Assembly (NCBI GenBank): GCA_963701665.1 | Contig: OY969622.1 | Location: forward strand, 1,152,001 to 1,216,000 | Origin: Candidatus Babeliales bacterium | GTDB lineage: Bacteria > Babelota > Babeliae > Babelales > JANWKD01 | Reading direction: 5' to 3' | Length of the DNA stretch: 64,000 bases | Shown here: piece by piece, positions 6,645 to 63,876 of the stretch | How the letters are laid out: every line of letters begins with the position of its first letter | Numbering within the stretch: position 1 is the stretch's first letter | Made by a program: the position numbers and the translations under genes | The notes under the pieces: generated by a model | Told to the model about the DNA's origin: nothing | Seen by the model: only the letters and a program-made list of their open reading frames with translations | The model's database searches: none

Positions 6645-7991
6645 ATGAAAAATATTTTTCTGATTTTAACTATTTTTGCATTCAGTACACGAGCAATGAA
6701 TGAAGAAACGCTAGCCATACCCAATAGCCCACATTATGATGCAGCGCTCAAACAGTTCACTATGCAACCGTTAATGCTTAAAACAATCGCTTCCAAGCAA
6801 GTTGCAAAAAATGTAGCGGCAACGTATTTTGAGAAACTTTCAGGAGAAAACATTGATGCATATGCACAAGAAATTGATACAATTATTATCCCGGATTTAC
6901 AACCTCTTGTTGCTCGTTATGCCATCGTTGAAGCTGCGCAAGCTGGCTATGTCTTTGGTTACACACAACCCAAACAACCAAAATGCGGGCGCACCTATGA
7001 AGGATGGTGGCGTTTTGATCGAGGAAATCCTTCAGATACGGTTCACAAAGTTATTTTTAAATATAATGACTATGCTCAAGAATTTACATTTGATGAACAC
7101 ATTCTGTATCTCGTTGATTCACCACAACAAAAAATGGTAGCCCTTATTGACGGTCCTATGTTTAAATTTTTTGTTCGAAAAGATTATACATGGAAATTCT
7201 TAGCAGAGACACCCTCAACAAATACGTCTTTACTATTTTTAGATGATGCAACCGCTTTAAGCTCAAGTCATAATGATAATGCCGTTACACTTGGAATATA
7301 TTCTGTTGATAATGATACTCTTTTAACCTCACATATAAAAAACACGCAAAAATTCTACTGTAGAAATAATGACAATATCCCATTAGCCGTTGTATACAAT
7401 GCTGACAAGCATGAATTACAATTATGCTATAAAAAAAATAGTCATGTAACCACCAAAGAACTTAGATCGTGGGTTGCAGAAGCGCCACCTAGCAATTGGA
7501 AAATTTTTAGCTCCCAAGATAAAAAAAATATAGCTCTCAGTTTTCATGACTATACCCGCAAAGTCGATAACCATACCATCTTATTATGTACAATGATAAA
7601 GCATACACCCATTTTAATATCATCTTTAAATCATAGAAGCGGGAACATTAAGGCATTGGAAGACGGATTCATTAGCTTAAAAGGATCCTATAAGCTTCAT
7701 CGCGGCAAAGATACACGGCACAAAGAACATTATGCTATCGACATCGAAACCGAAATAATGGTCACATATGCCACCAAAAAAGATGCAGAATCAGAATGTA
7801 AAAAATTAGGCAAGACAATGACTAATATACCACTGAAAGCACTATTTGCTTCGGTCGCCTTAAAAAATTCTGACGATCCCAAAGCCTTACAAAAACTGAA
7901 AGAATCGGATACCTTTCAAAATTTGGAAGACGTATTCAAAATCAATCTTCTTGAAAAAATTGAAACATTACTAAAAGATCAACCGCTATGA
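6645..7991 (+). CDS. Secreted hypothetical protein, paralog 1 (BC-box-like N-region, beta-rich core)
   Basis: Signal peptide ending STRA-MNEE. Shares PxYDxAxxxFT and ALxNSDDP segments with the next gene. Confidence 0.7.
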   Translation: MKNIFLILTIFAFSTRAMNEETLAIPNSPHYDAALKQFTMQPLMLKTIASKQVAKNVAATYFEKLSGENIDAYAQEIDTIIIPDLQPLVARYAIVEAAQAGYVFGYTQPKQPKCGRTYEGWWRFDRGNPSDTVHKVIFKYNDYAQEFTFDEHILYLVDSPQQKMVALIDGPMFKFFVRKDYTWKFLAETPSTNTSLLFLDDATALSSSHNDNAVTLGIYSVDNDTLLTSHIKNTQKFYCRNNDNIPLAVVYNADKHELQLCYKKNSHVTTKELRSWVAEAPPSNWKIFSSQDKKNIALSFHDYTRKVDNHTILLCTMIKHTPILISSLNHRSGNIKALEDGFISLKGSYKLHRGKDTRHKEHYAIDIETEIMVTYATKKDAESECKKLGKTMTNIPLKALFASVALKNSDDPKALQKLKESDTFQNLEDVFKINLLEKIETLLKDQPL

Positions 7992-9313
7992 AAAATTCCC
8001 TTTTATTTTTAATGCTCTTACCATTAAGCACGCGCGCCATGGAACAAGAACCTAAGGAGCACCCAACGATCAAACTCCCTCGTTATGATAGAGCGCGCCG
8101 ATGCTTTACGCGCACGGTGCCATCATTGGTCGAGTGTATGTTAAAACGAATGCCAAAAGTGTTAATCCCAAACCTCAAGGTACTTACAGGGGAAACGCTC
8201 GATTCACATGAATCGGCTATACAAAAAACTCTCAGCAAAGTTCCTGCAGAATTGCGTGAACCAATATCATTCAATTTCATGCTGCATGCAGCAAAACATA
8301 ACTATAAAATGATTTTTTACAAACGACGCAAAACAAAAAAAGCTCTTTCAAAAATATGCTTAAAAGATGATAAAAAATTAAACATTTATGGGAGCATGAA
8401 TCAATCTGCTAAAGAAGATACATTAATCTGCGATGATATCATTTTAGATCATGATACTAATCCTTCTGGCAATACAATGGCTCTATCTCTTACAAATGGG
8501 GCTGTGCAGTTTTTTCAAAAAAAAGATACTGTATGGGAAGATATTGGGGCAACACCACCTGAGAATAATAAAACAGTGTTTCATGTAACGCGTTTTTTTG
8601 ATGACACAACATGCGTATCTTATAGCATAAACATAAGAAATGAATTAACGCTATATACATTGAATAACGCATCTTTACAATCATCAAAGATTCCTCTTGA
8701 ATCTTCAATATATCTTACAAATCCAAATAAAAAGAATATACTTTTCTTTATAGATCCGGCGTGGAATTTATTCTGTTGTCTAAAAAATCAATCCGGCATT
8801 CAGGTACAAAAAGTTACTTCGCTCTCTTCTAGAGATGAATTTGACTCTGTTGTATCAGAAAATAAATTTTTTAATTATGTGGTCAATGATTTTTCAGAAA
8901 ATCCTATACTTCACGTTATTGGATTAATCGACACACAGCTTCAGGCAATAAAACAAATTAAAGCATGTAACATTTTCTCTATTGCTAACAAAGTCTACGT
9001 TAAAAGTTTTAAAAAAGGCATTATACATCTTGCAAAAGCTATTGATGATAATCACAGTTTTGATGAAAAAACCTTCGAGCATCATGCGATTGATGTGAAC
9101 GCTGAATCCAGCATTGCAACATTTCATGGCAAATTTTATGTTAAGCCAATGCTCAACCTTCCTTACCAAGCAATCCTTGCTTTGATTGCCTTAGAAAATT
9201 CTGACGATCCATCTCAGCTGGCAGCATGGGCAACATCTTCTGTTGTAAAAAATTTATCGGAAGAATTAAAAAATCAATTAATGGAAGAACACGACAAAAA
9301 AAAGAGTTCTTAA
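7988..9313 (+). CDS. Secreted hypothetical protein, paralog 2
   Basis: Signal peptide ending STRA-MEQE; ATGA overlap with paralog 1; homologous N- and C-terminal segments. Confidence 0.7.
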   Translation: MKNSLLFLMLLPLSTRAMEQEPKEHPTIKLPRYDRARRCFTRTVPSLVECMLKRMPKVLIPNLKVLTGETLDSHESAIQKTLSKVPAELREPISFNFMLHAAKHNYKMIFYKRRKTKKALSKICLKDDKKLNIYGSMNQSAKEDTLICDDIILDHDTNPSGNTMALSLTNGAVQFFQKKDTVWEDIGATPPENNKTVFHVTRFFDDTTCVSYSINIRNELTLYTLNNASLQSSKIPLESSIYLTNPNKKNILFFIDPAWNLFCCLKNQSGIQVQKVTSLSSRDEFDSVVSENKFFNYVVNDFSENPILHVIGLIDTQLQAIKQIKACNIFSIANKVYVKSFKKGIIHLAKAIDDNHSFDEKTFEHHAIDVNAESSIATFHGKFYVKPMLNLPYQAILALIALENSDDPSQLAAWATSSVVKNLSEELKNQLMEEHDKKKSS

Positions 9314-9429
9314 AATCAATGATTTTTTCAGATTGGATCGCTATTTCCAGAGTATGCCTGGGATCAAAAACATTAAGCAAAATTCGACACAAATATTTGC
9401 TTTAGGATATAAATATTGAAAACACAATC

Positions 9430-9527
9430 GTCATTGCGAGCGAATGCGTGGCAATCCAATTATAAAATTAGTTCCTTTAAGGAATTAATTAAAATTTGGA
9501 TCCCCACGGCCAAAGCCTCGGGATGAC
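9430..9527. repeat. Dispersed palindromic element (two-arm core)
   Basis: GTCATTGCGAGCGAATGCGTGGCAATCC-linker-GGATCCCCACGGCCAAAGCCTCGGGATGAC. Near-identical reverse complement at 34514-34611 and 48786-48881. Confidence 0.92.
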
Positions 9528-9587
9528 GCTGTGTTGTTTATTATTTTCAGGTCTTTATTAGAATTTTGGAATTTTAGGATTAGGCCC

Positions 9588-10724: not shown

Positions 10725-11951
10725 ATGGCGTTATATACTTACCAAGCTTTTACAAAAGATGGTAAAAAGACGACCGGCACCCTTGATGCTCCCTCAGAGG
10801 AAGCACTCCGGCAACAGTTGGTAAAAATGGGACTTTATCCAAGCAAGATAACGCTTGCAAAAAGTCAGACTGAATCAGTTCCTTGGTATAAAAGAATATT
10901 CACATCCTCAATATCGTTAAAAGATAAAATATTATTTACTAAACAACTTGCCGTATTGCTCAAATCGGGCGTTCCTTTATTGCAAGCACTCGATCTTCTT
11001 ATCGATCAGTTTGAAGGCGGTCTTCGCTCAATCATTATTACTATTAGAGATGGTATTAAGGAAGGTAAATCGTTCGCAGAAGGATTGAGCAGATATCCAA
11101 AAGTGTTTGATAGTATTTATGTACAACTGGTACGCGCAGGAGAAGCGAGTGGAAAATTAGAAACGATTCTTCTTCGTTTAGTTGAATATATGGAGCGGCG
11201 CGCGGCAATTATCAAAAAAGTAAAAGGCGCTCTCACCTATCCTATGATACAACTTGCCATGATAATTTTGGTAGTTGTTGGTTTAGTATCTTTTGTCATT
11301 CCAAAATTGGCTGAAACATTTACCGCACAAGGAAACCAGCTACCATTACCAACACGTATGCTCATGGCACTCTCAGATTTTTTACGTTCCTATTATCTCA
11401 TTATTTTAGGCGTTATTCTTTTTATAGCAGTTATCTATCGTTTCTGGAGCAAAACTGCAAGTGGTGCACGCATCATTGATACAATAAAATTAAAAATTCC
11501 CGTCATACGATATTTTACTAAAATGGGCGCTGTGGTACAATTCAGCCGCACGCTCGGCATGCTTATTGAAAGCGGGGTAAACTTAGCCGAATCATTAGAT
11601 ATTGTTGTCAAAATTATTGATAACCGCATCCTCAAAGATGCATTGAGCCAAGCACGCGATAAAATTATAAAACAAGGTAAAATTACTGAGTATTTAAAAC
11701 AAACAAATATTTTTCCTCCTATTGCTATTTATCTCTTAAAAACCGGTGAAGAAAGTGGACAACTTGATTTTATGCTGCTTACCGTTGCAAAGAATTATGA
11801 AGATGACTTATCAGATTTTTCTGATAACTTATCTTCAGCACTTGAACCAATTATGTTGATTACCATGGCAGTTATTGTTGGATTCATAGTCTTGTCAATT
11901 GTATTACCAATGACCCGTATGATGGGACCAGAAGAACAAATGAAACTTTAG
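10725..11951 (+). CDS. gspF: Type II secretion inner-membrane platform protein F
   Basis: FTKQLAVLLKSGVPLLQAL, AGEASGKL, ALTYP, GEESGQL and LEP motifs of the GspF/PilC family; followed by pseudopilins. Confidence 0.92.
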   Translation: MALYTYQAFTKDGKKTTGTLDAPSEEALRQQLVKMGLYPSKITLAKSQTESVPWYKRIFTSSISLKDKILFTKQLAVLLKSGVPLLQALDLLIDQFEGGLRSIIITIRDGIKEGKSFAEGLSRYPKVFDSIYVQLVRAGEASGKLETILLRLVEYMERRAAIIKKVKGALTYPMIQLAMIILVVVGLVSFVIPKLAETFTAQGNQLPLPTRMLMALSDFLRSYYLIILGVILFIAVIYRFWSKTASGARIIDTIKLKIPVIRYFTKMGAVVQFSRTLGMLIESGVNLAESLDIVVKIIDNRILKDALSQARDKIIKQGKITEYLKQTNIFPPIAIYLLKTGEESGQLDFMLLTVAKNYEDDLSDFSDNLSSALEPIMLITMAVIVGFIVLSIVLPMTRMMGPEEQMKL

Positions 11952-11985
11952 AAGATAACCCTATCTTTTTTGAAAGGAAGAATCG

Positions 11986-12414
11986 ATGACTACAACCCGT
12001 AGAAATATATATGTACAAGAAGCTTTTACCTTAATTGAAATTCTTGTTGCTGTGATGATTGTGGGAATACTGCTTGCTGTTGTTGGCGCAGGAACCGTAG
12101 GTTATTTGCGAAGAGCCTCTATCACCGGCACTAAGGCAAGTCTCAATGCGCTTTCCCAAGCAATTGACTTATATAGGGCTGATACCGGTGCATATCCTAA
12201 ACAGCTTGAAGAGCTTATCGAAGCTCCTAAAGCTTTAGCTAAAAAATGGATGGGGCCTTACATATCGAAAAAAACAACACCTCAAGATGGCTGGAATCAT
12301 GATTTTTATTACAAAGTGACACCGGGTGGCAAACATCCCTATGATTTATTCTCCTATGGCCCACACGGTGAAGAAGGCCCTGAAGAGGAACACCTAAGTG
12401 TTTGGGAAATCTAA
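11986..12414 (+). CDS. gspG: Type II secretion major pseudopilin G
   Basis: AFTLIE prepilin site, ALxQAIDLYRADTGAYP, WMGPY, DGWNHDFYY and SYGPHG. Confidence 0.9.
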   Translation: MTTTRRNIYVQEAFTLIEILVAVMIVGILLAVVGAGTVGYLRRASITGTKASLNALSQAIDLYRADTGAYPKQLEELIEAPKALAKKWMGPYISKKTTPQDGWNHDFYYKVTPGGKHPYDLFSYGPHGEEGPEEEHLSVWEI

Positions 12415-12949
12415 CATCTCAAAAGGTTTTACCCTTATAGAAATAGTAGTTGTCATCATGATTTTAAGCGTGGTGGCAACTATTGTTATTCCAAATATTT
12501 TACAACGTGCGCCCGGCTATGAGCGAAAAAAGTTTTTCTCAGAATTAAATTCCTTGATGGCAATCACGTGGGAACATGCATTGCGCACCAATCAGCTTCA
12601 TCGCGTCGTATTTGATTTTGATACAAGAACTATTAATATTGAAGTTGAAACAAAAAATGATGAAACTGGAAAAAGTTCATTTACCAATGTAAGTGGCGTG
12701 TATAGAAGAACTTCTTATCAATGGCCAGAAAATTTTGAAGTGCGAGAGTTTTTTATCGAGGGCTTAAACGAAATGAAAGGTGGCAAGAAAGTTGAAAAAA
12801 TGTGGATCTTTGTAACGCCCGAAGGATTAGCGCAAGAAGTCATTATAAACGTTATGGACGTTACCCAATCTAAAGAGATACCACTCGGATTAGTTCTAAA
12901 TCCTTTCATTGCACAATTTAAACTCTATGACACATTTCAAAAGCCGTAA
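12398..12949 (+). CDS. gspH: Minor pseudopilin, GspH-like
   Basis: GFTLIE prepilin motif; lies directly after gspG. Confidence 0.7.
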   Translation: MFGKSNISKGFTLIEIVVVIMILSVVATIVIPNILQRAPGYERKKFFSELNSLMAITWEHALRTNQLHRVVFDFDTRTINIEVETKNDETGKSSFTNVSGVYRRTSYQWPENFEVREFFIEGLNEMKGGKKVEKMWIFVTPEGLAQEVIINVMDVTQSKEIPLGLVLNPFIAQFKLYDTFQKP

Positions 12950-13355
12950 CGATTGCCAAGGATTTACTTTTGTTGAAGTAGCACTTGCCGTGTTAATGCT
13001 CGGCATCATGCTCACTGCAGCGCTTGGTTTGCAACAAAGCAGTTTTGCAAGCATCATCAGATATTCAGAACGCTTACAACAGATTCTTTTATTAAAAAAT
13101 CTATTATTTGATGCTGCATTCGCACGCGCGCAGCAGCAGGGATACGATCACCTTGAAAAAAAAGCGAGTGAGGATAACAAAACCTCGTTTCGTTATGGTA
13201 TAAAAAAAGTTGCTCAAAATTCTTCATTACACTCGTTTGAAAATATTCTCTGCCAAACAGCCGAGGCAACATGGGCAGGCCCTTTACGCACGAACAAAGA
13301 AACACTCATAAGCTTTCTGTATAAGCCTGAGAAAAAAGAGAAAGAGAAAACATGA
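12927..13355 (+). CDS. gspI: Minor pseudopilin, GspI-like
   Basis: GFTFVE prepilin motif, short length and operon position. Confidence 0.65.
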   Translation: MTHFKSRNDCQGFTFVEVALAVLMLGIMLTAALGLQQSSFASIIRYSERLQQILLLKNLLFDAAFARAQQQGYDHLEKKASEDNKTSFRYGIKKVAQNSSLHSFENILCQTAEATWAGPLRTNKETLISFLYKPEKKEKEKT

Positions 13356-14221
13356 AGTCTGGATTCACGCTTATTGAGCTTGTTATTGGACTTTTCATAT
13401 CAAGTATTATGCTGGTTTCTCTTTATACAAGTTTTTATATCACGGGCAGAGTAATAAAAAGTAGTGAAGATATCGTCAGTCATGATATTCACATTGCAAT
13501 CTTAGGACATCAGCTTGAGCATGATATCGATGGCATCTTTGCTCCCTCAAGCACCACCATTACTACAACACAACCATCACCCCAAACAGCTAATGAACAA
13601 AAACCAACTGACCAAAAGGAATCTACACCAAAAGAAATCAAAGATATTTTCATCAGCGCGAATGATAAAGATGGCATGTTGCGTACGCTCAGCTTTATCA
13701 CCGTCAACCCATTACAGACCTACCACAAAGAAGGCCCAGCCTCTCGTATGGTACGCGTTGTGTATAAACTTGCTCCTAACAAAGATAAAACTTCATTGAT
13801 ACTCACACGCCAAGAATCAACGAACCTCGATTTAAAAGCATTTGAAATAAAAGGCGCACAAGGCATTCGTGCATACGAATTAAATGATAGGATCAAATCA
13901 ATAGAGGTTGAATTTAAATATCCTGAACAAAAAGAAGAAAAAAAAGAAACAAAAGAGGAAACACAAGAGCAACAAAAAGTTGCATATGTAACAGTAAAAG
14001 AATGGACATCTGAACAGCAACCAAAAGAAAAAAAACCGGTGCCTCAGATTCCACAATTCATCATCTTTACCATTACCTTGTGGGATATTCATCATATCAA
14101 TGAACAAACGCATATAATGTCATATGCAATTCCTTCATTCAGTCAAAAAAAGGCTCCTCAAGAAAAGAAGCCGCAACAAAAGCCTAATCAGGCTCCTAAT
14201 GCCACACAAGTAGCTCGGTAA
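13352..14221 (+). CDS. gspJ: Minor pseudopilin, GspJ-like
   Basis: MKSGFTLIE, LEHDI and RVVYKL...LTRQE segments; operon position. Confidence 0.7.
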   Translation: MKSGFTLIELVIGLFISSIMLVSLYTSFYITGRVIKSSEDIVSHDIHIAILGHQLEHDIDGIFAPSSTTITTTQPSPQTANEQKPTDQKESTPKEIKDIFISANDKDGMLRTLSFITVNPLQTYHKEGPASRMVRVVYKLAPNKDKTSLILTRQESTNLDLKAFEIKGAQGIRAYELNDRIKSIEVEFKYPEQKEEKKETKEETQEQQKVAYVTVKEWTSEQQPKEKKPVPQIPQFIIFTITLWDIHHINEQTHIMSYAIPSFSQKKAPQEKKPQQKPNQAPNATQVAR

Positions 14222-14243
14222 ACGCCAGCAAAATAAGGATTTT

Positions 14244-15371
14244 ATGAAAAAACCATCCTCTTGCGCTCATCAATCAGGCTTCATTCTCGTTCTTACTCTC
14301 ATGATTTTGAGCATGACTGTGATGCTGGTGACACAACTTTTTCAAAGTAGCGTCATTCATTTTTATTTTGATCGGACCATGATTGAACGAGAGAAAGCAA
14401 AAGCTCTCGCGCGCAGCGGCATTGAATTGGCGTACAGTCTTCTTACTATACCGCCTCCAGAAGATAAGGAAGGTGCAAAAGCGGGTTACCCACCACAAGA
14501 AGGTCAAGAAAAAAAAGATCCCAACGTTGAATTGCTCAAAAAAATTTTGCCAACGCTCAACAGATGGCAAACCTTTGAACTTACTGAGCAAATAGATGGC
14601 ATGGATGGCGAGATTAAGCTTTGCATAACCTGCGAAGATGGTAAACTAGACCTGAATCAATGGTACGATTTTAACAAAAAGAAATTTATTGGTGGTGAAG
14701 GAGACGCATCGGCGGCAAGTTCAACACTGAAGTATGCCCATTCTTTTCTCGATGGTAAAAAAATTCTCAAAGCAGTTTTTGGCGGTCTTAAAAAAACAGC
14801 GAGCAATAAAGACTTATTTGAACAATTTGAAAAGTTTTTAAAACAGAGGCAGTATAAGTTGAATGATGTTACGGAACTTCTTGCAATGAAAGAATTACGT
14901 GACGCATTTAACGATGCCATTTTTTATGAACCGCCATCACCTAAGACGGGCAAAAAGGAACAAAGACCTGTGTATTTAATGGATATTTTCACGCTTTGGT
15001 CGAGTGCCAAAACTTTAAATCCATGGTTGCTTTCAGATTCAATTTGCGCCATAGTGGGATTAAAACGTGCTGAGCCAGGTGATTCGGCACTCCATGAAAA
15101 AGAAGTCGATCAACTCCTCAAGGGTATAAAATCAATTGAAGGAGATGTAAAAAGCGCGTGGGAAAAAGTTTTACAAAAATTGTATGGTAAAGAATTAAAA
15201 GCAGTACCAAATGATTTCAGTGCACTTTTTGCACAAAAATTTGAAGCAAGAACATTTGGTGTACTTTCATATGGGAGAGTAGGATCAATTACTCAAAAAA
15301 TTTTTGCAATCATAGGACGTGAAAAAGATGCTCTTGCTCCGTATACTATCAAGAGACTCTATTGGTTATAA
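14244..15371 (+). CDS. gspK: Minor pseudopilin GspK-like
   Basis: GFILVLTL without Glu5, AKALARSGIELA, EDGKLDLN and TLNP are GspK hallmarks. Confidence 0.8.
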   Translation: MKKPSSCAHQSGFILVLTLMILSMTVMLVTQLFQSSVIHFYFDRTMIEREKAKALARSGIELAYSLLTIPPPEDKEGAKAGYPPQEGQEKKDPNVELLKKILPTLNRWQTFELTEQIDGMDGEIKLCITCEDGKLDLNQWYDFNKKKFIGGEGDASAASSTLKYAHSFLDGKKILKAVFGGLKKTASNKDLFEQFEKFLKQRQYKLNDVTELLAMKELRDAFNDAIFYEPPSPKTGKKEQRPVYLMDIFTLWSSAKTLNPWLLSDSICAIVGLKRAEPGDSALHEKEVDQLLKGIKSIEGDVKSAWEKVLQKLYGKELKAVPNDFSALFAQKFEARTFGVLSYGRVGSITQKIFAIIGREKDALAPYTIKRLYWL

Positions 15372-17155: not shown

Positions 17156-17608
17156 TTAGGGTTTCAAATGCTTCAACAGCGCCAACTCTTTTCTATGCAT
17201 AATTTTATAATCTTCATCACGCTCGTGATCATATCCAAGCAAATGACAAATACCATGCACTAAAAGCACTTGCATGCGCTCGTACAAAGCAACATTCATG
17301 TCACGCGCCGCACGCTCCACATATTCAACAGAAATAATGAGATCACCGAGGTTTTTATCTTCCTCGTTTTTTGGTTTGATCCGCTCGCCTGCTTTGAGTG
17401 AAGGGTGATAGGAAAAGGAAAGAATGTCGGTTGCTTTGTCTTTATGGCGGTAGGTTTTATTGTAATAACGGATTGTTTTATTCGTCGTCAACCAAATGCC
17501 AAGATCATAATCTTCATAACGCAAGATGCGCAGAATTGTCTGCGCATCTTTTTTTAATTGTTTTATGTCGATTGGTATGGCACGTTGGGTATTTTTAATC
17601 GTTATCAT
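17156..17608 (-). CDS. ybeY: rRNA maturation RNase YbeY
   Basis: NKTYRHKDKATDILSF, LGDLIIS and HGICHLLGYDH motifs. Confidence 0.95.
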   Translation of the reverse strand: MITIKNTQRAIPIDIKQLKKDAQTILRILRYEDYDLGIWLTTNKTIRYYNKTYRHKDKATDILSFSYHPSLKAGERIKPKNEEDKNLGDLIISVEYVERAARDMNVALYERMQVLLVHGICHLLGYDHERDEDYKIMHRKELALLKHLKP

Positions 17609-18746
17609 CGTAAAAGTTCAATATTGTATGTTTTCTTTTTTCATGTTCAGCGTTTTTATTTTCTATAAATTGCTCTTCTTTTAATGCTAAAGCTACGTCA
17701 TTTTCATCATGTAATTTTTTTCGTAATAACGCTTCACGAGCTATTTTTTCTGCTTCTTCAGCTCGCGTTGCTTCTTCTTCACCTTGCTTCTTTCCAAATT
17801 CTCTTTCTTCTTTAGTTTTTCTAGAAATTTCAGCATTTTGCTCATCAGTCAAGTTACGATCAGTCTCAATAAAAATTTTAGCAAGACGTTTCGAATGTTT
17901 CTTCTTTCTAAGATTACAAACCTTACATTCTTCTATACGAGCATTAATTTCTTCTTCTGATGATGACGGCCCATTATTTAATGGGTTACAGTAATACTCT
18001 TCTTGTTCATTATTAATCTCATTGACTGTTTTTCCTTGTGCATCACGGCTTTTCACATCAAAATTATTCTTCAATAATTCTTCAAAAAGTGCTTCATAAG
18101 CAGAAGGCGGCTGTAAGCGAGCAGCAATATGAAGAGGGGTATCACCAGTTTTATCTCTTTCAACACTTAATGCTATTAATTTTTTTTGCACCTGCAAAGA
18201 TTTGTTTCGCGTAGCAATATCCAACAAGATATTGTCTCTATCATCTTTTTGCATCTGATCGAATTTAAGCCTTGTTGTCATAACTGCAATTGTTTCTACA
18301 CTTTGATCGCCATATTTTTCAATGAGCGCATGCAATGGGTACTTTAAAAAATATGTTTTTTCTGGGGTACGATCAACACAATATTCTTTAAAAGTATCTC
18401 TAACGTTCAACCCTTTTTCTTGCATAAATTGCAATAAATCGGGACGATTATGCTCAATCGCTTTTTGAATTAATTGAGGATGCCTACCGCAATCTTCAGC
18501 ATAAAATTTTTCTTTAAATATTTTTAAGGCATTTTGATCATTATTCTTTAAAACAGCTTCAAAAGCGTCAAGCATTGCCTTTTCACGTGACCAATTAAAA
18601 GTAACAGCACAATATATATTTTTCTGTAAACCTCGAAATCCAAAAAGCCCTTGTCGCGGAACCCCATGTTCATCAAGATAAGCCGCTGCATCATACATAC
18701 TCAGGAACAGAAGCATAAATATTAGCTTTCGCTTCAATACAATCAT
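17595..18746 (-). CDS. Secreted ankyrin-repeat protein with charged C-terminal coil
   Basis: Signal peptide; GDTPLHIAAR and YPLHALI ankyrin motifs; E/K-rich tail. Start placed at MIVLK. Confidence 0.75.
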   Translation of the reverse strand: MIVLKRKLIFMLLFLSMYDAAAYLDEHGVPRQGLFGFRGLQKNIYCAVTFNWSREKAMLDAFEAVLKNNDQNALKIFKEKFYAEDCGRHPQLIQKAIEHNRPDLLQFMQEKGLNVRDTFKEYCVDRTPEKTYFLKYPLHALIEKYGDQSVETIAVMTTRLKFDQMQKDDRDNILLDIATRNKSLQVQKKLIALSVERDKTGDTPLHIAARLQPPSAYEALFEELLKNNFDVKSRDAQGKTVNEINNEQEEYYCNPLNNGPSSSEEEINARIEECKVCNLRKKKHSKRLAKIFIETDRNLTDEQNAEISRKTKEEREFGKKQGEEEATRAEEAEKIAREALLRKKLHDENDVALALKEEQFIENKNAEHEKRKHTILNFYDDND

Positions 18747-19059: not shown

Positions 19060-21565
19060 ATGAAAAAAAAGCTTATTATTTTTTTTACCATTTTTCTAAC
19101 AATTGCTAGTTCATTACCTATTTTTGCAATGGAAATGAGCATTGTTGAAATAAAGGAAAGTATCCAAAGCCGTATTTCTGAAGACACCAATCTTGATCAG
19201 CCTGATAGTATTGGCGTTATTCCATTAATCTTTGCAGCACAACATAATGATGCCGACTTAACCCATCAACTGATTGCATTTCATGCCAACGTTAATGTGC
19301 AAGATAGGTGTGGGTCAACACCTTTGCACAATGCGCTACGAAATGGAAATATTTCTCTTGCACATTTTTTGCTCAATCATGGCGCAAATGCTGATATCCA
19401 AGATGCACAAGGCAATACACCGCGTTCCCTTGCTCAGGAATATTCTCTTACTGATATTTTAAAACGTTTTGATGAAAGTAAGAAAGTTGAAAAAGAAACC
19501 TCCAAAGGAAAAGAAAAAGAAGAATCGGCCAAGAAACCGGCAAAAACAAAAAAAATAGGAGCATTTAAGAGAAAAGCGCAAACTGCCTTTAAAGTATTAC
19601 ATGTTCTCAATACTCGTAAAAATACGACAGAAATTCAAAGAAAACTTTTGGCACTTTTTACTGATAAAAAAGCCATGATGACATCTTCAGAAAAAAAATT
19701 ACATCTTACTTCTGAAGATTGGTATGCATTAATTACCGCTGTTTCTGAAAATAGTGTAGAAAAAGTAGCTAACGTCCTTAGCAATGAAGATGCTAATGTT
19801 AATCTCGTAACGCCATCAGGATTTACTGCACTTGCATTAGCCTGCAAAAATTGCAGTAGAGAAATTGTTAATAAGTTACTACAGCACAAAAAAACTATCA
19901 TTGATCTTCCACTTCAAAGCGGAGCAACTCCTTTAATTATTACTGCATCAACTCCTATTGATAGGCCGCATCTACAAAAAAAGTGCTTTAAAATTATAGA
20001 ATTATTAGTTGAGCATGGAGCTAATATTGATACACAAGATAAAGAAGGTTCAACAGCATTAATGAAGGCTTTGTTGAATGGCAATATTAAAGTAGCAAAA
20101 TTTCTTATTAAATTAGGCGCAGATACTTCACTAAAAGACAACCATGGTTTTAGCGCGCTTTTTTATGCAGCAGGAAAAGGGTATTTGCCCATTGTTAAAA
20201 AATTAGTAAAACATGGCGCTAATGTTGATGCTACATCAAAAAAATGGAATCCAGTAACACAAGCAATTTCCGAAGATCATTATAAAAGTTGCACAATTCT
20301 TACAACAAGCAGCATCAAACACACCAGAAGATGTAGAAGAAACTACTGATGATCTTAATGAAAATGACTTCATATTAATTGATACAAATAAATCCCATCC
20401 CAAAAAGAAAATATCTTTTAACATACCGGACGAAGAAAAAGAAATAGATGAAAATTTTAAAGCACTAAAAACAAACAACACAGGTAAAGGCAAAATAAAT
20501 TATTTTAAAGGACTGTTAAAAAGAAAAAAATGGCAAAAACAAAATGATTTAGCTTCTGAATTTGACGAATTAGATTCTCTACAAAACAATTTATCCCTTC
20601 AAGATTTACAACAACATACAAAAGAAAAATCACATAGAGGCAGTTCTTATAATGATATTAACAATATTGATACATTGTGGAGAAGAAGAATAACCTTAAA
20701 TGAGCTCAAAGAAAAAATAAAACTTCGCGAACATTTTGTAGAAACCATTGAAGAAGTAAAAAAAATAGTAGGTGATGGATTTGATTTTATCTTTGATAAC
20801 GAAATTCCTTTAGATATGACGAAAGAAGAATATTCAGAAAGCAAGATAAGTGAAGTAATGAGCGCGGCAAGTGAATTTTTGGACGTTAAAATCCAAACTC
20901 TTAATGAAGAATATGAAGCTGAAAGACAAAAAAGTATAGATGCAAAAAAAGAAGCAGATTACCATTTAAAAGAAGCCGAACATTATAAAAAAGAAGCAGA
21001 ATCCCATTTAAAAGAAAAAAGGCGACATGATAAAAGGATAATAAAGCTTGAAAACAAGGAAAAAAAGCATAAAAAAAATGCACGTGTACGTCAAATAGTT
21101 CTTGCTCGTATGCCAGTACCAACTAATAAAGAACGGAAAATTATTGAAAAAAGAACAACTCAACCGCTTAAGGAGCTAGAAAAAATTAAAATATATGCAG
21201 ATGAATATTTAACGAAAGAAATACCAAAAGAAGAATTAAAATATTTAAATGTAGAATTATCTGATGAAGAATTCCAACGCGCCTTGGAAAGTAGCGAAGA
21301 ACAAAAGAAAAAAATTGAAGATATGCGAGAAGAAAAACATAGGAAAAAAGAAGAACAATTCAAGAAAGACTTAAAAAGAGTTGGCAGACCTAATGGTGAG
21401 CAACTTAGGGAACTTCAGATAAGAACAGGTAAAAATAATATTCTAAAGTTAAGTAACATTTACGTAGCTGAAAAATTGGCTCAAGAAGAATCCCATAGGA
21501 TAATTGATGGTTTTGAGCCGGAAGATCCTTCTGATGAGAACTCAGAAGAAGAAAGCGAAGAATAA
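19060..21565 (+). CDS. Secreted ankyrin-repeat/coiled-coil protein split by one frameshift (~20284-20287)
   Basis: ORFs 19051-20349 and 20675-21565 join if one A is removed from TATAAAAGTT. The shifted frame reads HYKVAQFLQQ (completing the ankyrin repeat) and is open from 20288 to 21565. Confidence 0.8.
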
Positions 21566-22231: not shown

Positions 22232-22495
22232 TTAGTTTCTTTTTACCAACATATGACACTTAGCACATGACTGATTCAGAGGGATACTGGATGGATAATT
22301 TAATGCTTCAAAAAGACATTGCGGATAATTAATATGTCCAGCAGGATCTTGTAGATAATTTTTCATAACCGGATGTCGTGCTTGCTCTTCTAAAGTCATC
22401 CCACTACTTTTTGCACCTACAAAAAGTTCCATCGCATTATTTGTTGAAATTAAAAAAAATAACGCATAAAAAGAGATATTGCCTATTTTTTTCAT
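22232..22495 (-). CDS. Small secreted hypothetical protein
   Basis: MKKIGNISFYALFFLISTNNA-MELF; C-terminal CxxCH-like CAKCH of unknown meaning. Confidence 0.5.
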   Translation of the reverse strand: MKKIGNISFYALFFLISTNNAMELFVGAKSSGMTLEEQARHPVMKNYLQDPAGHINYPQCLFEALNYPSSIPLNQSCAKCHMLVKRN

Positions 22496-22572: not shown

Positions 22573-22845
22573 TCACGGTTTATTTTCAAAAGTTGGGTCT
22601 TTTTTAACCATATCTTTCCAAAAATTTTTCTTCCATTTTGATTCCGCGGTAGCCGCCGTGCACTCTTTTTTCTTTCTTATATTATATCCTGAAGGTGGTC
22701 GTGGTGGACTCTGCTTTGAGCGCTGCTTTGGACTTTGCTTTGGTCTATAAATAACGCCTTTTTTGTGTGACTTGCGTTTATAACATGGGGTCATTGGGAA
22801 AAAATGACACATGAGCAGTACATAAAAAAGAATTTTATAGTTCAT
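22573..22845 (-). CDS. Small basic secreted protein (duplicated leader, copy A)
   Basis: GAGGT RBS; leader MNYKILFYVLLMCHFFPMTPC; K/R/P/S-rich body. Confidence 0.7.
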   Translation of the reverse strand: MNYKILFYVLLMCHFFPMTPCYKRKSHKKGVIYRPKQSPKQRSKQSPPRPPSGYNIRKKKECTAATAESKWKKNFWKDMVKKDPTFENKP

Positions 22846-23573: not shown

Positions 23574-23807
23574 TTAATTCGTTTTTTTAGGTGCTTTTTT
23601 CTTTGCAGCAGGAGAAATCTCAGGTTTTTCTTTTACTTTACCCAATTCAACTAACGCTTCTATCGCTCTACGTTCACTCCGAGTAACACGTGAATATGCA
23701 CGCGATACATCCGTAACTGTTTTTTTTGGGGTTACTTTTTTCATTGCTGCAAGCTCTAAGAAACATGTACCCATCACAATGCTCAGAACAAGTGCATTAT
23801 AGTTCAT
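23574..23807 (-). CDS. Small basic secreted hypothetical protein
   Basis: AAGGA RBS; signal peptide ending LAA-MKKV; SPAAKKKAPKK tail. Confidence 0.65.
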   Translation of the reverse strand: MNYNALVLSIVMGTCFLELAAMKKVTPKKTVTDVSRAYSRVTRSERRAIEALVELGKVKEKPEISPAAKKKAPKKTN

Positions 23808-41681: not shown

Positions 41682-42110
41682 ATGAACAAGTTATTTATAG
41701 TGTTATTTATTACTGGTTTAGCCTGTGTACAGGTATCCTTAAGCATGGAGCTGGAACCGGATGCCTTGGAAAAAGCAATCAAGAAAAGGCTCATACAGCT
41801 CCCTCCACGCCCTAATCGTTTAAAGCAGATAATCATTGAACCATCTAGGCAAAATTCAACGGTAGAAAAGCAGCTTGATGAAGCATTTGCAACATTAAAA
41901 AACAAAGGTTTTCTCTTTAATCAGATTCAAAGCTGCAAAGTGGAATGTGATCCCGACAATAAAATTAGGGTTAAAAAAATTCTTAGACGCGATAGTAGTT
42001 TTGAAACAATACGAGATAAAACTTTTGTCGAAGGAACAACAAAATTACCCGAGGGATGCTTAATAAGGCTCGATGCAGTAGTACGCGCAACAAGAAAAGC
42101 GAACCTTTAA
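41682..42110 (+). CDS. Secreted protein with divergent RidA/YjgF-like domain
   Basis: Signal peptide ending SLS-MELE; VEKQLDEAFATLKNKG and TFVEGTTKLPEGCLIRLDAVV resemble RidA-family segments. Confidence 0.55.
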   Translation: MNKLFIVLFITGLACVQVSLSMELEPDALEKAIKKRLIQLPPRPNRLKQIIIEPSRQNSTVEKQLDEAFATLKNKGFLFNQIQSCKVECDPDNKIRVKKILRRDSSFETIRDKTFVEGTTKLPEGCLIRLDAVVRATRKANL

Positions 42111-44049: not shown

Positions 44050-44475
44050 ATGAAAAAAATTACTATCATATCTTTTTGTCTTTCAATATTGTTAATTCAC
44101 TCTGCTTCAAGCATGGAACAATGTAAATCAGTATGGACTCCTGAAACAGTAATTGGTGTTGGTGGAGCTCTTGTTGGCATTAAACTTATGCATGATGGAT
44201 TGCAAAAAATGGCCAATCCGAACCGACAATCGTTTTCTTTATCGAGATGGAAACTTTTCAGTGAGAATCAGGGAGGAACAAATACGGTAACCCTACAGTT
44301 TCCCCAAGCAACTGTTGTACCGCCTAAAATTACATTTAAATTCAAGCGTCTTAATGCAGAAGAAATATCTCAAGAATTTAAAGAAGGCGTATTCTTATTT
44401 GGCTGTGGAGCATTGAGCACTTTTGGTAGCATTGCAGGCATTTATCTTATTCGGAAAAATTATTCCCAGATTTAA
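44050..44475 (+). CDS. Small exported membrane protein (tandem family, 2)
   Basis: Signal peptide ending ASS-MEQC; same architecture (HDGLQK vs YDGMKK). Confidence 0.65.
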   Translation: MKKITIISFCLSILLIHSASSMEQCKSVWTPETVIGVGGALVGIKLMHDGLQKMANPNRQSFSLSRWKLFSENQGGTNTVTLQFPQATVVPPKITFKFKRLNAEEISQEFKEGVFLFGCGALSTFGSIAGIYLIRKNYSQI

Positions 44476-48748: not shown

Positions 48749-48935
48749 TAGCGCGAACTCGATGAAACTTACAATACATAGAAATGTCATCCCGAGGCTT
48801 TAGCCGTGGGGATCCAAACTTTAATTAATTCCTTAGGAACTAATTTTATAATTGGATTGCCACGCATTCGCTCGCAATGACAATTCTGTTTTCCATATGC
48901 ATTACCTGCGGCATAGTAACATTGAACTTGTGTTA
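48749..48935. mobile_element. MITE-like element, colinear with 34475-34665 (core 48786-48881)
   Basis: AACTCGATGAAACTTACAATA...GTCATCCCGAGG...GCAATGAC...GGCATAGT.ACAT..AACTTG.GTTA is shared with the other copy. Confidence 0.78.
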
Positions 48936-49934
48936 TTGTACTGTATCATCTTCACTCTGAGTTAAGCGTTGTCTTTTTTCGAATAATGTTTTGACTCGAG
49001 GGTAGTGTCTTTTTTTGAGAATTTTTGTGCCATGATAGGTACGACGTTCGCGCTGCTTTTTTCCTGCAAGCATATCAACCCAATAGTTATAAGGGTTATG
49101 CATTGGCGGAGTTCTTTCTAATAGATGCGCTGCTACATCCTGCGCTTTTTTACCAAACTCTAGAGCATGTTCATCTTCATTATCAAGCCAACTCCAATAT
49201 GAATATATAAAGCATATGTGAGAAAACTCTTCATGGGCATGCATGTTGATAAGTTCATTTTGAAAAGAGTTTTGCGCACTATTAAAACTTACGCCCCAAT
49301 CAGTTAGACGCTTATAGAGAGCGGATGAATCAAGAGTATTGGTCAGGCTGGGCAATTCAGAACGATCGCGTATCAGTATTTCAAGAACTTTATTTTCAAG
49401 ATGCGATCTTTTTTGAGCCCCTCGATCGACTTGTATTTTTTCTATTCTTTTTTGAGCCTCTTCTTGTAACTGTTTGAATTTATTAAACTCATCAGCTTTT
49501 GGGCTATTATTAAGCACCTCCCGATAAGCACCTTCAATGAGTCGCATAAAATCATTAAAATAGACATTCAAGTAAATGCATGGTAATAATTTCAAAAAAT
49601 AACACATTTGTTTATGAACAGCCTTTTTACAAGCAAATGTAGTCTCATCATTTCTCTTCATAAATTCTTGCACTTTTCTTCGTTTATATTCTTCTATTTT
49701 CAGATCATCGAACTCAAATTCGCATACTGCTTCGATGCCAAAACCATGAAATAAATCAAAGGCAGCCTCGAAGTCCTGCAAACGAAGAAGCTCGGGTTCA
49801 CATTGTCGGTCATTCACTATACACTCGATAGATGCTAGTACCTGCTCATTACTAATGTTGCTTTTATCTTCCATCGCCAACACGGGCACATTAGTATAAA
49901 AAAGTAGTAAAGAAAGTAATAAAAAAAATAGCAT
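48933..49934 (-). CDS. Secreted hypothetical protein
   Basis: MLFFLLLSLLLFYTNVPVLA-MEDK; basic C-terminal patch (KKQRERR, KKRHYPR). Confidence 0.7.
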   Translation of the reverse strand: MLFFLLLSLLLFYTNVPVLAMEDKSNISNEQVLASIECIVNDRQCEPELLRLQDFEAAFDLFHGFGIEAVCEFEFDDLKIEEYKRRKVQEFMKRNDETTFACKKAVHKQMCYFLKLLPCIYLNVYFNDFMRLIEGAYREVLNNSPKADEFNKFKQLQEEAQKRIEKIQVDRGAQKRSHLENKVLEILIRDRSELPSLTNTLDSSALYKRLTDWGVSFNSAQNSFQNELINMHAHEEFSHICFIYSYWSWLDNEDEHALEFGKKAQDVAAHLLERTPPMHNPYNYWVDMLAGKKQRERRTYHGTKILKKRHYPRVKTLFEKRQRLTQSEDDTVQ

Positions 49935-54388: not shown

Positions 54389-54847
54389 ATGAAAGCAAAA
54401 ATTCTAATTACACTCTTCAGCTGCACAATTTTTATTGTTATGCCACTTCTTAGCATGGAACAACAAGAAGAACCAATTGAAGTGATTATCCATAACTCAG
54501 TATCGGACAATCGTGAACAATCAGCATCTGTTCCAGATGATATTTCGGAAAAAGTTCCTTTACCGTTCTGCTGGAGAGTCGCATCTAATATTGTCGCTAC
54601 AGGGATGATTACAGTACCACTTGTAACTATCGTCGGCGTGGCAGCAGCTGGTCCCACTATATTCAACGATGAAATGGGCTTAGATACTCTTCCAACTATA
54701 GTACTAAGTGCCTTCACTGCTCTTGTTAGCGGCACATTATGTTTATGTGCCTGCGCACAAGGTAAAGATAGATTTAACCAATGTCGAGCCCGTGCCAAAC
54801 AAAGAGCGGCAAGAAAATTTAGTTTCGCCGTAGAAAATAAAGTTTGA
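54389..54847 (+). CDS. Secreted protein with a two-segment hydrophobic hairpin
   Basis: GAGAGG RBS; signal peptide ending LLS-MEQQ; two hydrophobic segments and a Cys/basic tail. Confidence 0.7.
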   Translation: MKAKILITLFSCTIFIVMPLLSMEQQEEPIEVIIHNSVSDNREQSASVPDDISEKVPLPFCWRVASNIVATGMITVPLVTIVGVAAAGPTIFNDEMGLDTLPTIVLSAFTALVSGTLCLCACAQGKDRFNQCRARAKQRAARKFSFAVENKV

Positions 54848-60446: not shown

Positions 60447-60986
60447 TTAAGGATCAAAGCGGGAAATATCAAAATCATCGTAAAAACACAGAGTGCTAAA
60501 AGGGGAAATATCAAATAATTCATCTGTATCCAAATCAGCGCACGGATATTGGGTATGCTTAAACAAATATCGCTCTTCAGTATCTGTACAATCTTCTACA
60601 GAGCTATCGCCGATTTCTTTCTTTTGCATTTCTGGCATCCGCTCATTTTCCAGTTGCTGTTTTAATTTTCTTGCTTCTCGCGCTCGTTTGCGCCGCAATT
60701 TTCTTTTTTTTGCTTTGCTTGGCTTTTGACTTTGAAGAACATTTTTTGGTGTTATATTAACCTTTTCCATAAATGCATGGAAGGCCAGCGCATCTTCTTC
60801 AGTTCCCAATGCGGTACAGTAGCGACTAGTTTCCAAAAATTTATTTAAATGTGCCCATGCTTCTTCGCCTTTTTTGCCATTTATTTCTATATCAAAATTG
60901 TCCAAAAAACCTTTTTCACCTTGATCCATACAAGAAAGAGCAAATGAACATAACAAGATAGATATCAAAACAATGTAATGTATCAT
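60447..60986 (-). CDS. Secreted hypothetical protein with NLS-like basic tract
   Basis: Signal peptide ending LSC-MDQG; KAKKRKLRRKRAREARKLK; acidic/aromatic tail. Confidence 0.7.
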   Translation of the reverse strand: MIHYIVLISILLCSFALSCMDQGEKGFLDNFDIEINGKKGEEAWAHLNKFLETSRYCTALGTEEDALAFHAFMEKVNITPKNVLQSQKPSKAKKRKLRRKRAREARKLKQQLENERMPEMQKKEIGDSSVEDCTDTEERYLFKHTQYPCADLDTDELFDISPFSTLCFYDDFDISRFDP

Positions 60987-61700: not shown

Positions 61701-62228
61701 TTAATTATCGCTATCACTTTCATCAGACGATGCAGAATCAGTATCGGTAGAACTTTTTTCTGATGCAGAACTTTGAAAACGTTTCATCGCAAGATAGAGA
61801 GCTTCATGGTCGTGTGGACGAGCCACAATGCCATGCTCATAAGCAAAGCGAAAACGATCTGGATTATTATCAGTTTCCATTATAGTCACATAATCGAGTG
61901 CTGGCTGTGGTTTTTGCAGTTTAAGTGAGTTTTCGTTGTAGCTAATAATTATAGGTTGATTCATTTCTTGTGGCTGAACATTGCGGGCCGAAGCACGTGT
62001 ACCAACCAAAACAGGAGCTCTGAGTAAAGCAACCACACCCTCGCTCAAGGTTTCCTCAGATTGCTGTGTATTATTAGTATGGTTTCCAGGTATCAATGGT
62101 CCACCGTAGTTCAAACGCATTATATAGGTATTAAATTCTTCTAAGGTTTCCTGACCATCTTCCATACAATATAAGGCTGGCATACATAAAAAACCCAACG
62201 ATAAGAGATAAAAAGTTATTGGTTGCAT
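61701..62228 (-). CDS. Secreted hypothetical protein
   Basis: AGGGGG RBS; signal peptide ending LYC-MEDG; Ser/Asp-rich tail. Confidence 0.7.
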   Translation of the reverse strand: MQPITFYLLSLGFLCMPALYCMEDGQETLEEFNTYIMRLNYGGPLIPGNHTNNTQQSEETLSEGVVALLRAPVLVGTRASARNVQPQEMNQPIIISYNENSLKLQKPQPALDYVTIMETDNNPDRFRFAYEHGIVARPHDHEALYLAMKRFQSSASEKSSTDTDSASSDESDSDN

Positions 62229-62319: not shown

Positions 62320-62694
62320 TTAATAATTACACTTTCTGCAAAAAAAGACCGCTATCGCTTCTTCCGGTGTTTGGCCGGGGTACTGAGGAACCAAGAGGGT
62401 ATCAAAGAGCCGTTCAACCTCACCCGGGCCCCAAGATTTTTTTTCTGGGAAATCAGGAAAAATACTGTTAATAGTTGCAGCAATCTGATTACTTTTTTTA
62501 AGATCTGCTATTATTTTCTCATTCCTCATTGCTGCGAGCTCTAACCGCGCAAAAGCAACTTCAATTTCGCCCCATTGCAACTCATCATAAGCTTTTTCAA
62601 TAAAACGGTGAGCATCAAGAGGATTACCCATTTCCATGGCACGTAAAGAATTAAAAAAAATAATTATTAATACAGCAAGAATTGAGTATTTCAT
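62320..62694 (-). CDS. Secreted hypothetical protein
   Basis: GGGAG RBS; MKYSILAVLIIIFFNSLRA-MEMG. Confidence 0.7.
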   Translation of the reverse strand: MKYSILAVLIIIFFNSLRAMEMGNPLDAHRFIEKAYDELQWGEIEVAFARLELAAMRNEKIIADLKKSNQIAATINSIFPDFPEKKSWGPGEVERLFDTLLVPQYPGQTPEEAIAVFFCRKCNY

Positions 62695-62749
62695 GAATTG
62701 CTCCCTAAAAATCATAATTTATGTGCAATAAATATATAATGAATACTCT

Positions 62750-62775
62750 TAAAAAAGGCAATAGTGAGATGAATT
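62750..62775. repeat. 26-bp direct repeat, copy 1
   Basis: TAAAAAAGGCAATAGTGAGATGAATT, identical at 63937-63962. Confidence 0.9.
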
Positions 62776-62781
62776 TTGATT

Positions 62782-63876
62782 TTATGCTTGTAATTGCTCG
62801 ATAGATTCTCTCAATTTTATTAGTGTTTCTCTATTTTTTGGTGAATCGAGAATAACTATTTTGCCTCCTTCATATTTAAAATCTAATGGAAACACTTTAA
62901 TATTTTTTTCTTCCAAGCCGAGTTCTTTAATATCTTCTGGTTCCAACCATGGAAATTTTTCCAATTTCAGATAAATGATAAAACGATTGGGAATATGCTT
63001 ATAGAATTCCTCAAGGCGCCTAAGCGGCCCCCCTTTTATTATCTCGAAAGTTCTCTCAGTATTTCCCAAATCAAGCACAATAAAAAGAGGTGAATCCACC
63101 GCCCTTTTATAAGGTATTTCTTTATAAGGCAGGGCACTTGAGCGAGTAATAACATTAAAGTTGAGAATATCCTTATCAAACGTCTTAGCATAAGGAATTT
63201 CTGTCAACGTATGTTCTATTGGAACATACCTTTCATGTTTTATTGGCACGATTTTTTGGGGAGCAGCTTGTGTGATTTTTATAGCGGCATCTTCAATAGC
63301 ATTTCTGAGCTCTGTTAATGTTTCTCTATTTTTCAGCGAATCGAGAATAACTATTTTGCCCCCTTCGTATTTAAAATCTAATGGAAACACTTTAATATTT
63401 TTTTCTTCCAAGCTGAGTTCTTCAATATCTTCTGGTTCCAACCATGGAAATTTTTCTAATTTCAAATAAATGATGAAACGATTGGAAATATTCTTATAGA
63501 ATTCCTCAAGACGCCTAAGCGGCCCCCCTTTTATTATCTCGAAAGTTCTCTCAGTATTTCCCAAATCAACCACAATAAAAAGAGGTGAATCCACAGGCTT
63601 TTTATATTGTATTTCTTTAAAAGGCAGGGCACTTGAGCGAGTAATAACATTAAAGTTGAGAATATCCTTATCAAACGTCTTAGCATAAGGGATTTCCGTT
63701 AACATATGTTCCATTGGCAAACGTTTTGGGGGAATAACTTGTGTGTTTTCTAAGGCACTTTGTAAATTTTCTAAATCATTTTTCAAGATGCTCAGTGCAT
63801 CGCGCGCAAATTCCATTGATAATGATTGCCCATACATAAAAAGAAAAATAATAATGCTAGCGTTAATTTTTTGCAT
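62782..63876 (-). CDS. Secreted protein with a recently duplicated ~140-aa domain
   Basis: Signal peptide ending SLS-MEFA; two near-identical LTEIPYAKTFDKD...KNRETL units with a 495-nt period. Confidence 0.8.
   Translation of the reverse strand: MQKINASIIIFLFMYGQSLSMEFARDALSILKNDLENLQSALENTQVIPPKRLPMEHMLTEIPYAKTFDKDILNFNVITRSSALPFKEIQYKKPVDSPLFIVVDLGNTERTFEIIKGGPLRRLEEFYKNISNRFIIYLKLEKFPWLEPEDIEELSLEEKNIKVFPLDFKYEGGKIVILDSLKNRETLTELRNAIEDAAIKITQAAPQKIVPIKHERYVPIEHTLTEIPYAKTFDKDILNFNVITRSSALPYKEIPYKRAVDSPLFIVLDLGNTERTFEIIKGGPLRRLEEFYKHIPNRFIIYLKLEKFPWLEPEDIKELGLEEKNIKVFPLDFKYEGGKIVILDSPKNRETLIKLRESIEQLQA

Follow-up and report, generated by a model that had tools for sequence, protein, structure and literature searches.

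A class-biased methionine at the predicted signal peptidase junction of exported Babeliales proteins

The methionine junction in the window and across the genome

The stretch analysed here, called the window throughout, is the 64,000-nucleotide segment G000:C1:1152001-1216000 of a 1.34-Mb single-contig genome (G000) of a Babeliales (Dependentiae) bacterium whose relatives are intracellular in protists. The genome has four matches to TLC nucleotide transporters, and their named homologues come from Ca. Babeliaceae/Babeliales. A preliminary description of the window had listed 17 open reading frames (ORFs) in which methionine directly follows the signal peptide, and all 17 junctions were borne out. 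Every coordinate is the ATG start of an ORF, the leaders are of the n/h/c type, and the junction between a small residue and methionine lies at residues 18-24. The predicted mature part begins with Met-Glu in 14 cases and with Met-Asn, Met-Asp and Met-Lys in one case each; proline occupies position −1 in the protein starting at 41486. Genes, signal peptides and cleavage sites were called with our own scripts, not SignalP or Prodigal. The cleavage model was trained on positions −13 to −1 only and scored methionine as neutral, never favouring it. It nevertheless ranked the methionine site first in 12 of the 17 proteins, second in three and fifth or sixth in two, in agreement with the earlier proposal that cleavage falls directly before the methionine.

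In what follows a slash marks the predicted junction. The forward strand carries two paralogous exported orphans at 6645..7991 (TRA/MNE, Met codon 6696) and 7988..9313 (TRA/MEQ, Met codon 8039; A/ME is kept in the orthologue of a second Babelota genome, G001, at 27% identity), an ankyrin-repeat protein at 19060..20349 (IFA/MEM, Met codon 19129) and orphans at 41682..42110 (SLS/MEL), 44050..44475 (ASS/MEQ, flanked by Met-free exported neighbours at 43660 and 44498) and 54389..54847 (LLS/MEQ, with two predicted membrane segments downstream). On the reverse strand are a small exported orphan at 22232..22495 (NNA/MEL), a small basic orphan at 23574..23807 (LAA/MKK, Met site ranked second), a WD40 protein at 29845..31821 (LFG/MEK, Met codon 31767) and orphans at 34714..35763 (CSA/MEE, ranked sixth), 40409..40894 (AQA/MEK; A/ME kept in the G001 orthologue, 34%), 40911..41486 (IKP/MEE, ranked second), 48933..49934 (VLA/MED, ranked fifth; A/ME kept in the G001 orthologue, 25%), 60447..60986 (LSC/MDQ), 61701..62228 (LYC/MED), 62320..62694 (LRA/MEM) and 62782..63876 (SLS/MEF, ranked second). 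A counter-example is the ankyrin protein at 17595..18746 on the reverse strand, which has a signal peptide and a junction without methionine. Pfam upheld the ankyrin and WD40 assignments of the preliminary description; the F-box proposed on the protein starting at 35763 gave no match at E<=1e-3 and is F-box-like by eye only, and the proposed nuclear localization signal (NLS)-like segments were flagged by our NLS pattern in 0/17 proteins within 60 residues of the methionine. The envelope label given to six comparison proteins was likewise not confirmed for four of them (1947, 4808, 10607 and 55595), which belong to no Pfam or NCBIfam family.

The junction extends to the whole genome. Our gene caller predicted 1168 genes, 573 of them signal-peptide-like, a set that contains false positives (for example, 18 cytoplasmic families among 300 proteins scanned). 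Met-Glu occurred at residues 15-33 in 89/494 soluble signal-peptide proteins versus 15/595 others (p=6e-19). Methionine stood at +1 of the site chosen by the Met-blind model in 129 of 534 proteins, compared with 4-24 at each other offset (about 14 at neighbouring ones). A strict motif, defined as a small residue followed after the leader by Met and then Glu, Asp, Gln or Asn, was found in 152/530 proteins, or about three in ten exported proteins, versus 10.5 in deeper windows; it is spread over 99 BLAST families and present in every 100-kb bin. The residues before the methionine (Ala, Ser, Gly or Cys at −1; mostly Leu, Ser, Ile or Thr at −3) follow the signal peptidase I pattern, and the genome has two signal peptidase I genes (PF10502) with catalytic Ser and Lys boxes. 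These paralogues stand in tandem (G000:C1:911619-913409) and are 63% identical, both with the boxes; the duplication is patchy across the order. Position +2 is also constrained. Glu, Asp, Gln or Asn follows the methionine in 102/129 cases in G000 and 45/49 in G001, compared with 38/122 at +2 of Met-free leaders and 75/341 at native starts in G000, whereas a hydrophobic residue follows it in only four (G000) and two (G001) cases. From these sequences we regard a selected, class-biased rule at +1 of predicted signal peptidase I substrates as real, with cleavage predicted just before the methionine.

Proteins that carry the methionine and lineages that keep it

Dependentiae have hundreds of exported proteins, Sec and a type II secretion system (T2SS), and the question that the methionine may address is how the host-bound proteins are chosen. 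Of the 304 signal-peptide proteins that were eligible within the first 767 kb of G000, 300 were searched with Pfam, and we sorted their families manually. The strict motif was present in 22/35 proteins with host-like domains (ankyrin, WD40, DnaJ, LRR, AAA and others), 0/23 envelope proteins and 2/35 other enzymes (p=3e-7), and in 0/18 cytoplasmic false calls and 60/189 proteins without a family. The class bias proposed earlier thus held, and an equal frequency of +1 Met in envelope proteins, which had been set beforehand as the outcome that would speak against it, was not seen. Counted by family under a looser rule, the bias is weaker (6/13 versus 1/19). A scan of 12 relatives, read by eye, gave methionine after the leader on 10/15 host-like versus 1/20 envelope proteins, with one false call per group taken out by eye; it covered 149 of 164 leaders, a size limit having excluded ten from one G008 cluster and five of cytoplasmic or membrane-anchored appearance. 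CaaX-like C-terminal ends (7/145 Met-class versus 2/284 Met-free proteins) and NLS-like basic runs (15/145 versus 13/284) were both modestly enriched, which points to the host cytosol. A disulfide proxy gave no difference between the two classes in G000.

Several exported proteins in these sets deserve mention in their own right. The CaaX-ended Met-class proteins (G000:C1:317024, 317572, 613653, 785864, 979061, 1073296 and 1287967) often have an extra Cys or basic residues and are candidates for host prenylation. AAA+ ATPases with signal-peptide-like leaders (G000:C1:575513, 580307, 680762, 1012695, 1035143 and 1049952) bear methionine at +1 in some members only; a secreted AAA ATPase was considered as a translocon motor and set aside; several exist, and the methionine is present in some and missing in others. 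A glutamine synthetase at G000:C1:43037-44425 (L003:5766-7151) has a signal-peptide-like leader and a 67% identical counterpart in G001, which is odd for an ATP-using enzyme. Three exported GNATs turned up in the Pfam scan of G000. In genome G041, a tandem Sel1-repeat family (L054:3732-14933), whose leaders end in A/TS and not in methionine, adjoins a Met-free secreted ubiquitin hydrolase. Exported MavL-like (L018:14223-15716), DOT1-like methyltransferase (L038:13993-14649) and lysophospholipase (L017:17775-19334) proteins all lack the Met-acidic motif. Within the window, the tandem of three at 43660-44872 has only its middle protein Met-first; this tandem and 54389-54847 encode small exported proteins with hydrophobic segments past the leader, candidates for vacuole-membrane proteins. 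A weak HSP20 match (E 5e-5) at 42170-42778 bears a signal-peptide-like leader, and two small paralogous ORFs at 22573-23101, whose leaders are nearly identical, have mature parts that are very basic and Met-free.

We then asked whether the methionine persists in orthologues. Over 460 kb of G001 the motif is on 75/187 leaders. Among 76 reciprocal G000-G001 pairs with leaders, both members carried it in 12, neither in 55 and one only in nine (p=2e-7); this result is a concordance of status and not a site-wise rate, and a count of 12 kept among 92 other methionines is not a like-for-like control. The 18 pairs with the motif in G000 have a mean identity of 34%; their leaders are of unequal length, and Glu, Asp and Gln replace one another at +2. 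An anchor-free global alignment matched the methionine in only 6/18 pairs, no better than its neighbours, owing to the unequal lengths of the N-termini. Of the 75 motif genes in G001, only 16 found a reciprocal hit in G000 (median identity 34%), versus 72 of 112 Met-free genes (58%).

For breadth across Babelota, we counted a DNA pattern (h-region, small residue, Met-Glu/Asp) in 151 genomes. In G000, 31 of 37 pattern hits are true and 31 of 120 motif genes are found. Taking 15 per Mb as the line, set after the fact, 52/151 genomes passed, namely 2/2 of family f1, 7/7 of f11, 1/1 of f17, 10/20 of f3, 26/55 of f19, 4/7 of f5, 1/3 of f2 and 1/3 of f14, and 0/53 genomes of ten other families did so. 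The pattern is blind to other +2 residues, as in genome G042, where all six ankyrin/WD40 proteins begin Met-Val or Met-Ile. Motif-poor f13 yielded single in-frame examples, three read by eye, so that a low count may simply mean few effectors. These three are all that we kept from a first pattern scan, which was too noisy because a reversed control understates chance (44-51 by the deeper-window control versus 83). A strict scan of named genomes gave 25 hits, most of which stood alone or were not in frame, and was too strict for mapping breadth. GspF was found in 61/61 genomes, motif-poor families included, and the motif is at background in ten families; the co-occurrence with gsp genes proposed in the preliminary description is therefore uninformative.

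Babela massiliensis offers a published comparison. Its annotation table (PMC4378268, supplement 9) has 126 ankyrin rows; each of the first 10 has, by eye, a small residue followed by methionine, nine with a SignalP call, and the residues at +2 are Arg, Asn, Gln, Lys, Glu, Glu, Glu, Ile, His and Glu; 0/9 periplasmic or outer-membrane rows have such a junction, although only three of these look cleavable. In the Ulp1-like alignment of the same source, 7/7 full-length members have it. In the available parts of that article, the authors term these leaders 'atypical' and report the T2SS as the only secretion system detected. The secreted repertoires described for Babela and Chromulinavorax (PMC4378268, PMC6561590) resemble ours in that ankyrin and orphan proteins bear signal peptides, but the accessible main texts never say methionine. 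The word is also absent from the main texts, as available, of PMC4776705 and PMC5837995, and 'signal peptide' occurs 0 times in PMC12172432. We did not find the Met-first rule described in the literature, of which subscription journals, bioRxiv and the Babela supplements were covered only in part; Rfam, ESM Atlas, viral contigs, plasmids and a representative search gave nothing useful on the motif.

Outside Babelota, breadth amounts to one verified genome, the alphaproteobacterium G085. TLC carriers make up 51/401 alphaproteobacterial genomes, and the G085 TLC protein, whose gene shares a contig with a motif gene at a distance of about 2 kb, is 78% identical to Ca. Paracaedibacteraceae proteins. 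Its 2.1 Mb gave 45 pattern hits; 30 were examined and 14 were N-terminal leaders followed by Met-Glu or Met-Asp on ORFs (13 by rule, one by eye). Three further genes, neighbours of pattern hits, are also Met-first, giving 17, and these have 0 BLAST hits at E<=1e-3 in G000. They include two LRR proteins, a lipase and a peptidase, and Met-free leaders occur on BepA-like and DsbA-like proteins, LolA, a binding protein and two other LRR proteins. G085 has one signal peptidase I gene, a type VI secretion system (T6SS) sheath gene, two secretins and a two-domain GspF/PilC-type gene. Elsewhere in the class the signal is faint. In G291 and G089 only 0-1 of 30 pattern loci were real; the pattern lists of G069, G232, G071 and G378 resemble that of G085 by eye only; in 20-kb samples near TLC genes of 40 alphaproteobacteria the motif was on 2/183 leaders, below a control of six; and a strict pattern in all 401 genomes did not cleanly split TLC-bearing from other genomes, base composition being a confounder. 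The unpublished genomes G295 and G102 are not drawn on for any claim. The small TLC-bearing alphaproteobacteria G378, G256 and G082 (0.5-0.6 Mb) keep the two-domain GspF/PilC-type gene, and G378 also has two secretins and the T6SS sheath gene. As judged from predicted leaders, the same methionine mark is present in a Holosporales-like alphaproteobacterium, a likely endosymbiont unrelated to Babeliales, which is new.

A proposed host-style N-terminus and its alternatives

At the level of predicted proteins, the data establish the rule itself, its host-like bias, its retention by diverged orthologues and its presence in two unrelated lineages. As to function, our preferred reading, to which we give a probability of about 0.4, is that the methionine provides a host-style N-terminus that is kept by host N-terminal quality control. 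In the proposed scenario, the ordinary signal peptidase I would cut the precursor just before the conserved methionine and the protein would leave through the type II system. The window has such a cluster at 10725..15371 on the forward strand (GspF, GspG, three further N-methyl pseudopilins and a GspK-like gene without a family hit), which is the likely, predicted outer-membrane exit; any reading of the methionine by this system is putative. After delivery to the host cytosol or nucleus, mature proteins starting with Met-Glu, Met-Asp, Met-Gln or Met-Asn would look like native eukaryotic proteins and would probably escape N-terminal quality control, the methionine shielding an acidic or amide residue which, if exposed, would create an Arg/N-degron, with acetylation as a further possibility. 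According to the parts of PMC11735805 consulted, Met-Asp/Asn/Glu/Gln termini are substrates of the acetyltransferase NatB, free Asp, Glu, Asn and Gln lead to Arg/N-degrons, and unacetylated Met-hydrophobic termini are UBR substrates. The +2 residues of family f1, in which Met-hydrophobic termini are avoided, fit this picture. The rule may have originated when a leader was added upstream of an existing ATG, which gives the methionine for free, and selection may then have kept it. Its presence in the unrelated G085 is as expected if the host imposes the methionine.

Several points weigh against this scenario. Ala, Ser, Gly, Thr or Val would shield equally under the N-end rule, and Met-free members of Met-majority families are not richer in these residues overall (8/24 versus 116/340 other exported proteins, p=1.0), although Val is raised among them (5/24, p=0.012). 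The host-like proteins include 13/35 without the motif, and the cleavage sites come from our own model, not SignalP. The earlier NatB-like description of the terminus holds for family f1 and fails for the Met-Val/Ile termini of G042, outside the NatB set, and holds only in part for Babela, where 4/10 of the tabulated ankyrin rows considered (Arg, Lys, His or Ile) fall outside it and 6/10 inside. The methionine being constant and +2 varying by lineage, the NatB reading is not universal. Moreover, NatB is tethered to the ribosome and acts co-translationally, which makes it doubtful that an imported protein would be acetylated, and NatB substrates left unacetylated may themselves be UBR1 targets (PMC11735805, in the part consulted). 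Finally, Babela grows in one vacuole, as described in the available text of PMC4378268, and delivery to the host cytosol is thus putative.

Alternatively, the mature methionine could be an export tag for the host, read by a periplasmic chaperone, a secretin paralogue or a vacuole translocon, all putative; we consider this nearly as probable as the host-style reading. The constancy of the methionine while +2 varies, and the failure of other stabilising residues to substitute for it, would fit such a tag, and the Babela vacuole implies a second sorting step. In Plasmodium, according to the available part of the report (10.1101/2023.05.17.541120), signal-peptidase cleavage that gives the right mature N-terminus suffices for export. 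Candidate machinery exists in both lineages: G000 has a T2SS with GspC and two secretins, and searches for a T6SS or VirB9 gave no match (type III and type I systems were not searched for), and G085 has its GspF/PilC-type gene and secretins. Yet GspF is as universal in motif-poor families as elsewhere, GspG gave no match in G085, no dedicated reader gene was found, and the T2SS is believed to recognise its cargo by fold, no linear signal being known in such cargo. The signal peptidase I duplication does not track the motif either, and a dedicated second peptidase was rejected as a candidate, with one match in 6/7 motif-rich f11 genomes and two or more in 9/12 motif-poor f12 genomes. Host control and an export tag may both hold.

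A methionine without present function, left when a leader was added before the protein's own start codon or when a leader-plus-Met cassette was copied, with the acidic +2 a general bias of Sec substrates, appears improbable to us. Met-class genes are indeed young and fast, as their few reciprocal hits between G000 and G001 indicate, 31 motif genes come from one ankyrin-rich family, and the sequence past the methionine of one DnaJ protein resembles a native start by eye. A relic would not explain why +2 differs from native starts and exceeds Met-free leaders in acidic and amide residues, why the motif is in so many BLAST families, or why orthologues agree in status although their leaders match neither in length nor in sequence and Glu, Asp and Gln are exchanged at +2. 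Translation from the second ATG, which would give a leaderless cytoplasmic form, is very improbable. About half of all G000 starts lack a strong Shine-Dalgarno sequence, and a naive gene caller placed the starts of three window genes at the junction methionine (6696, 44113 and 49874), so that the signal peptide was lost, an error that gene callers can make in such genes. But a Shine-Dalgarno score >=4 was found at 0/154 internal versus 79/154 first ATGs, and predicted folding is stronger at the internal region (−5.3 versus −2.2 kcal/mol; −3.6 at random methionines). GTG and TTG are not enriched at +1, four Val replacements being GTT or GTA, and there is no Kozak-type codon bias (Ser AGY 25/61, p=0.42). 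The signal-peptide interpretation of the preliminary description is thus preferred over an internal start.

Comparison with known systems

The host-style reading has a close parallel in the eukaryotic NatB and Arg/N-degron system as set out in the consulted part of PMC11735805: Met-Asp/Glu/Asn/Gln make up 79-92% of the f1 methionine termini. The difference is that NatB acts on host ribosomes, whereas the termini described here would arise in the bacterial periplasm, and +2 is Val, Ile, Arg, Lys or His in other lineages. A precedent is offered by Listeria p60 and listeriolysin O, reportedly secreted proteins that become host N-end rule substrates (Sijts 1997, Schnupf 2007); as in our scenario, host N-degron machinery hits bacterial proteins secreted to the cytosol, but these are single proteins and no secretome-wide residue rule is involved.

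In form, the rule resembles the Bacteroidetes Q-rule, in which, in the portions of PMC5837995 and PMC10653852 consulted, a lineage-specific residue at +1 after signal peptidase I is proposed or shown to stabilise exported proteins. There the Gln is cyclised by the bacterium's own glutaminyl cyclase and lies on most signal peptidase I substrates; here the residue is Met, on a host-like subset that leaves out envelope proteins. Gln stands at +1 in 34 and Met in 129 of the 534 sites in G000, and the Met rule has no known modifying enzyme, although no search was made for a glutaminyl cyclase or an equivalent.

In what seems to be marked, the rule resembles the Plasmodium PEXEL, where, as far as the available parts of 10.1101/2023.05.17.541120 and PMC10900883 go, an N-terminus made by cleavage separates host-exported from resident proteins. 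In our data this split is seen as a correlation with domain class only. The PEXEL x-Glu/Gln/Asp pattern also resembles Met-Glu/Asp/Gln. PEXEL operates in a eukaryotic endoplasmic reticulum with an RxL motif, plasmepsin V and the PTEX translocon, whereas here we find a bacterial Sec leader, a fixed methionine and no known translocon, and Arg stands at −3 in 0/254 sites. It is conceivable, though on balance unlikely, that a PEXEL-like code arose independently in Babeliales and in Holosporales-like bacteria, signal peptidase exposing the methionine and a putative reader sending the protein to the host. If so, a single residue would read out the effector list of lineages without genetics. Already the mark yields a predicted effector list of the 152 strict-motif proteins, of which the Pfam-scanned ones mostly lack a family, and it can be tested directly in the cultured Babela-Acanthamoeba pair. 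Altogether, our results suggest that host N-terminal biology or a putative sorter shapes bacterial secretomes across phyla, through a methionine rule that is Q-rule-like in form and PEXEL-like in the proteins that it seems to mark, yet belongs to neither.

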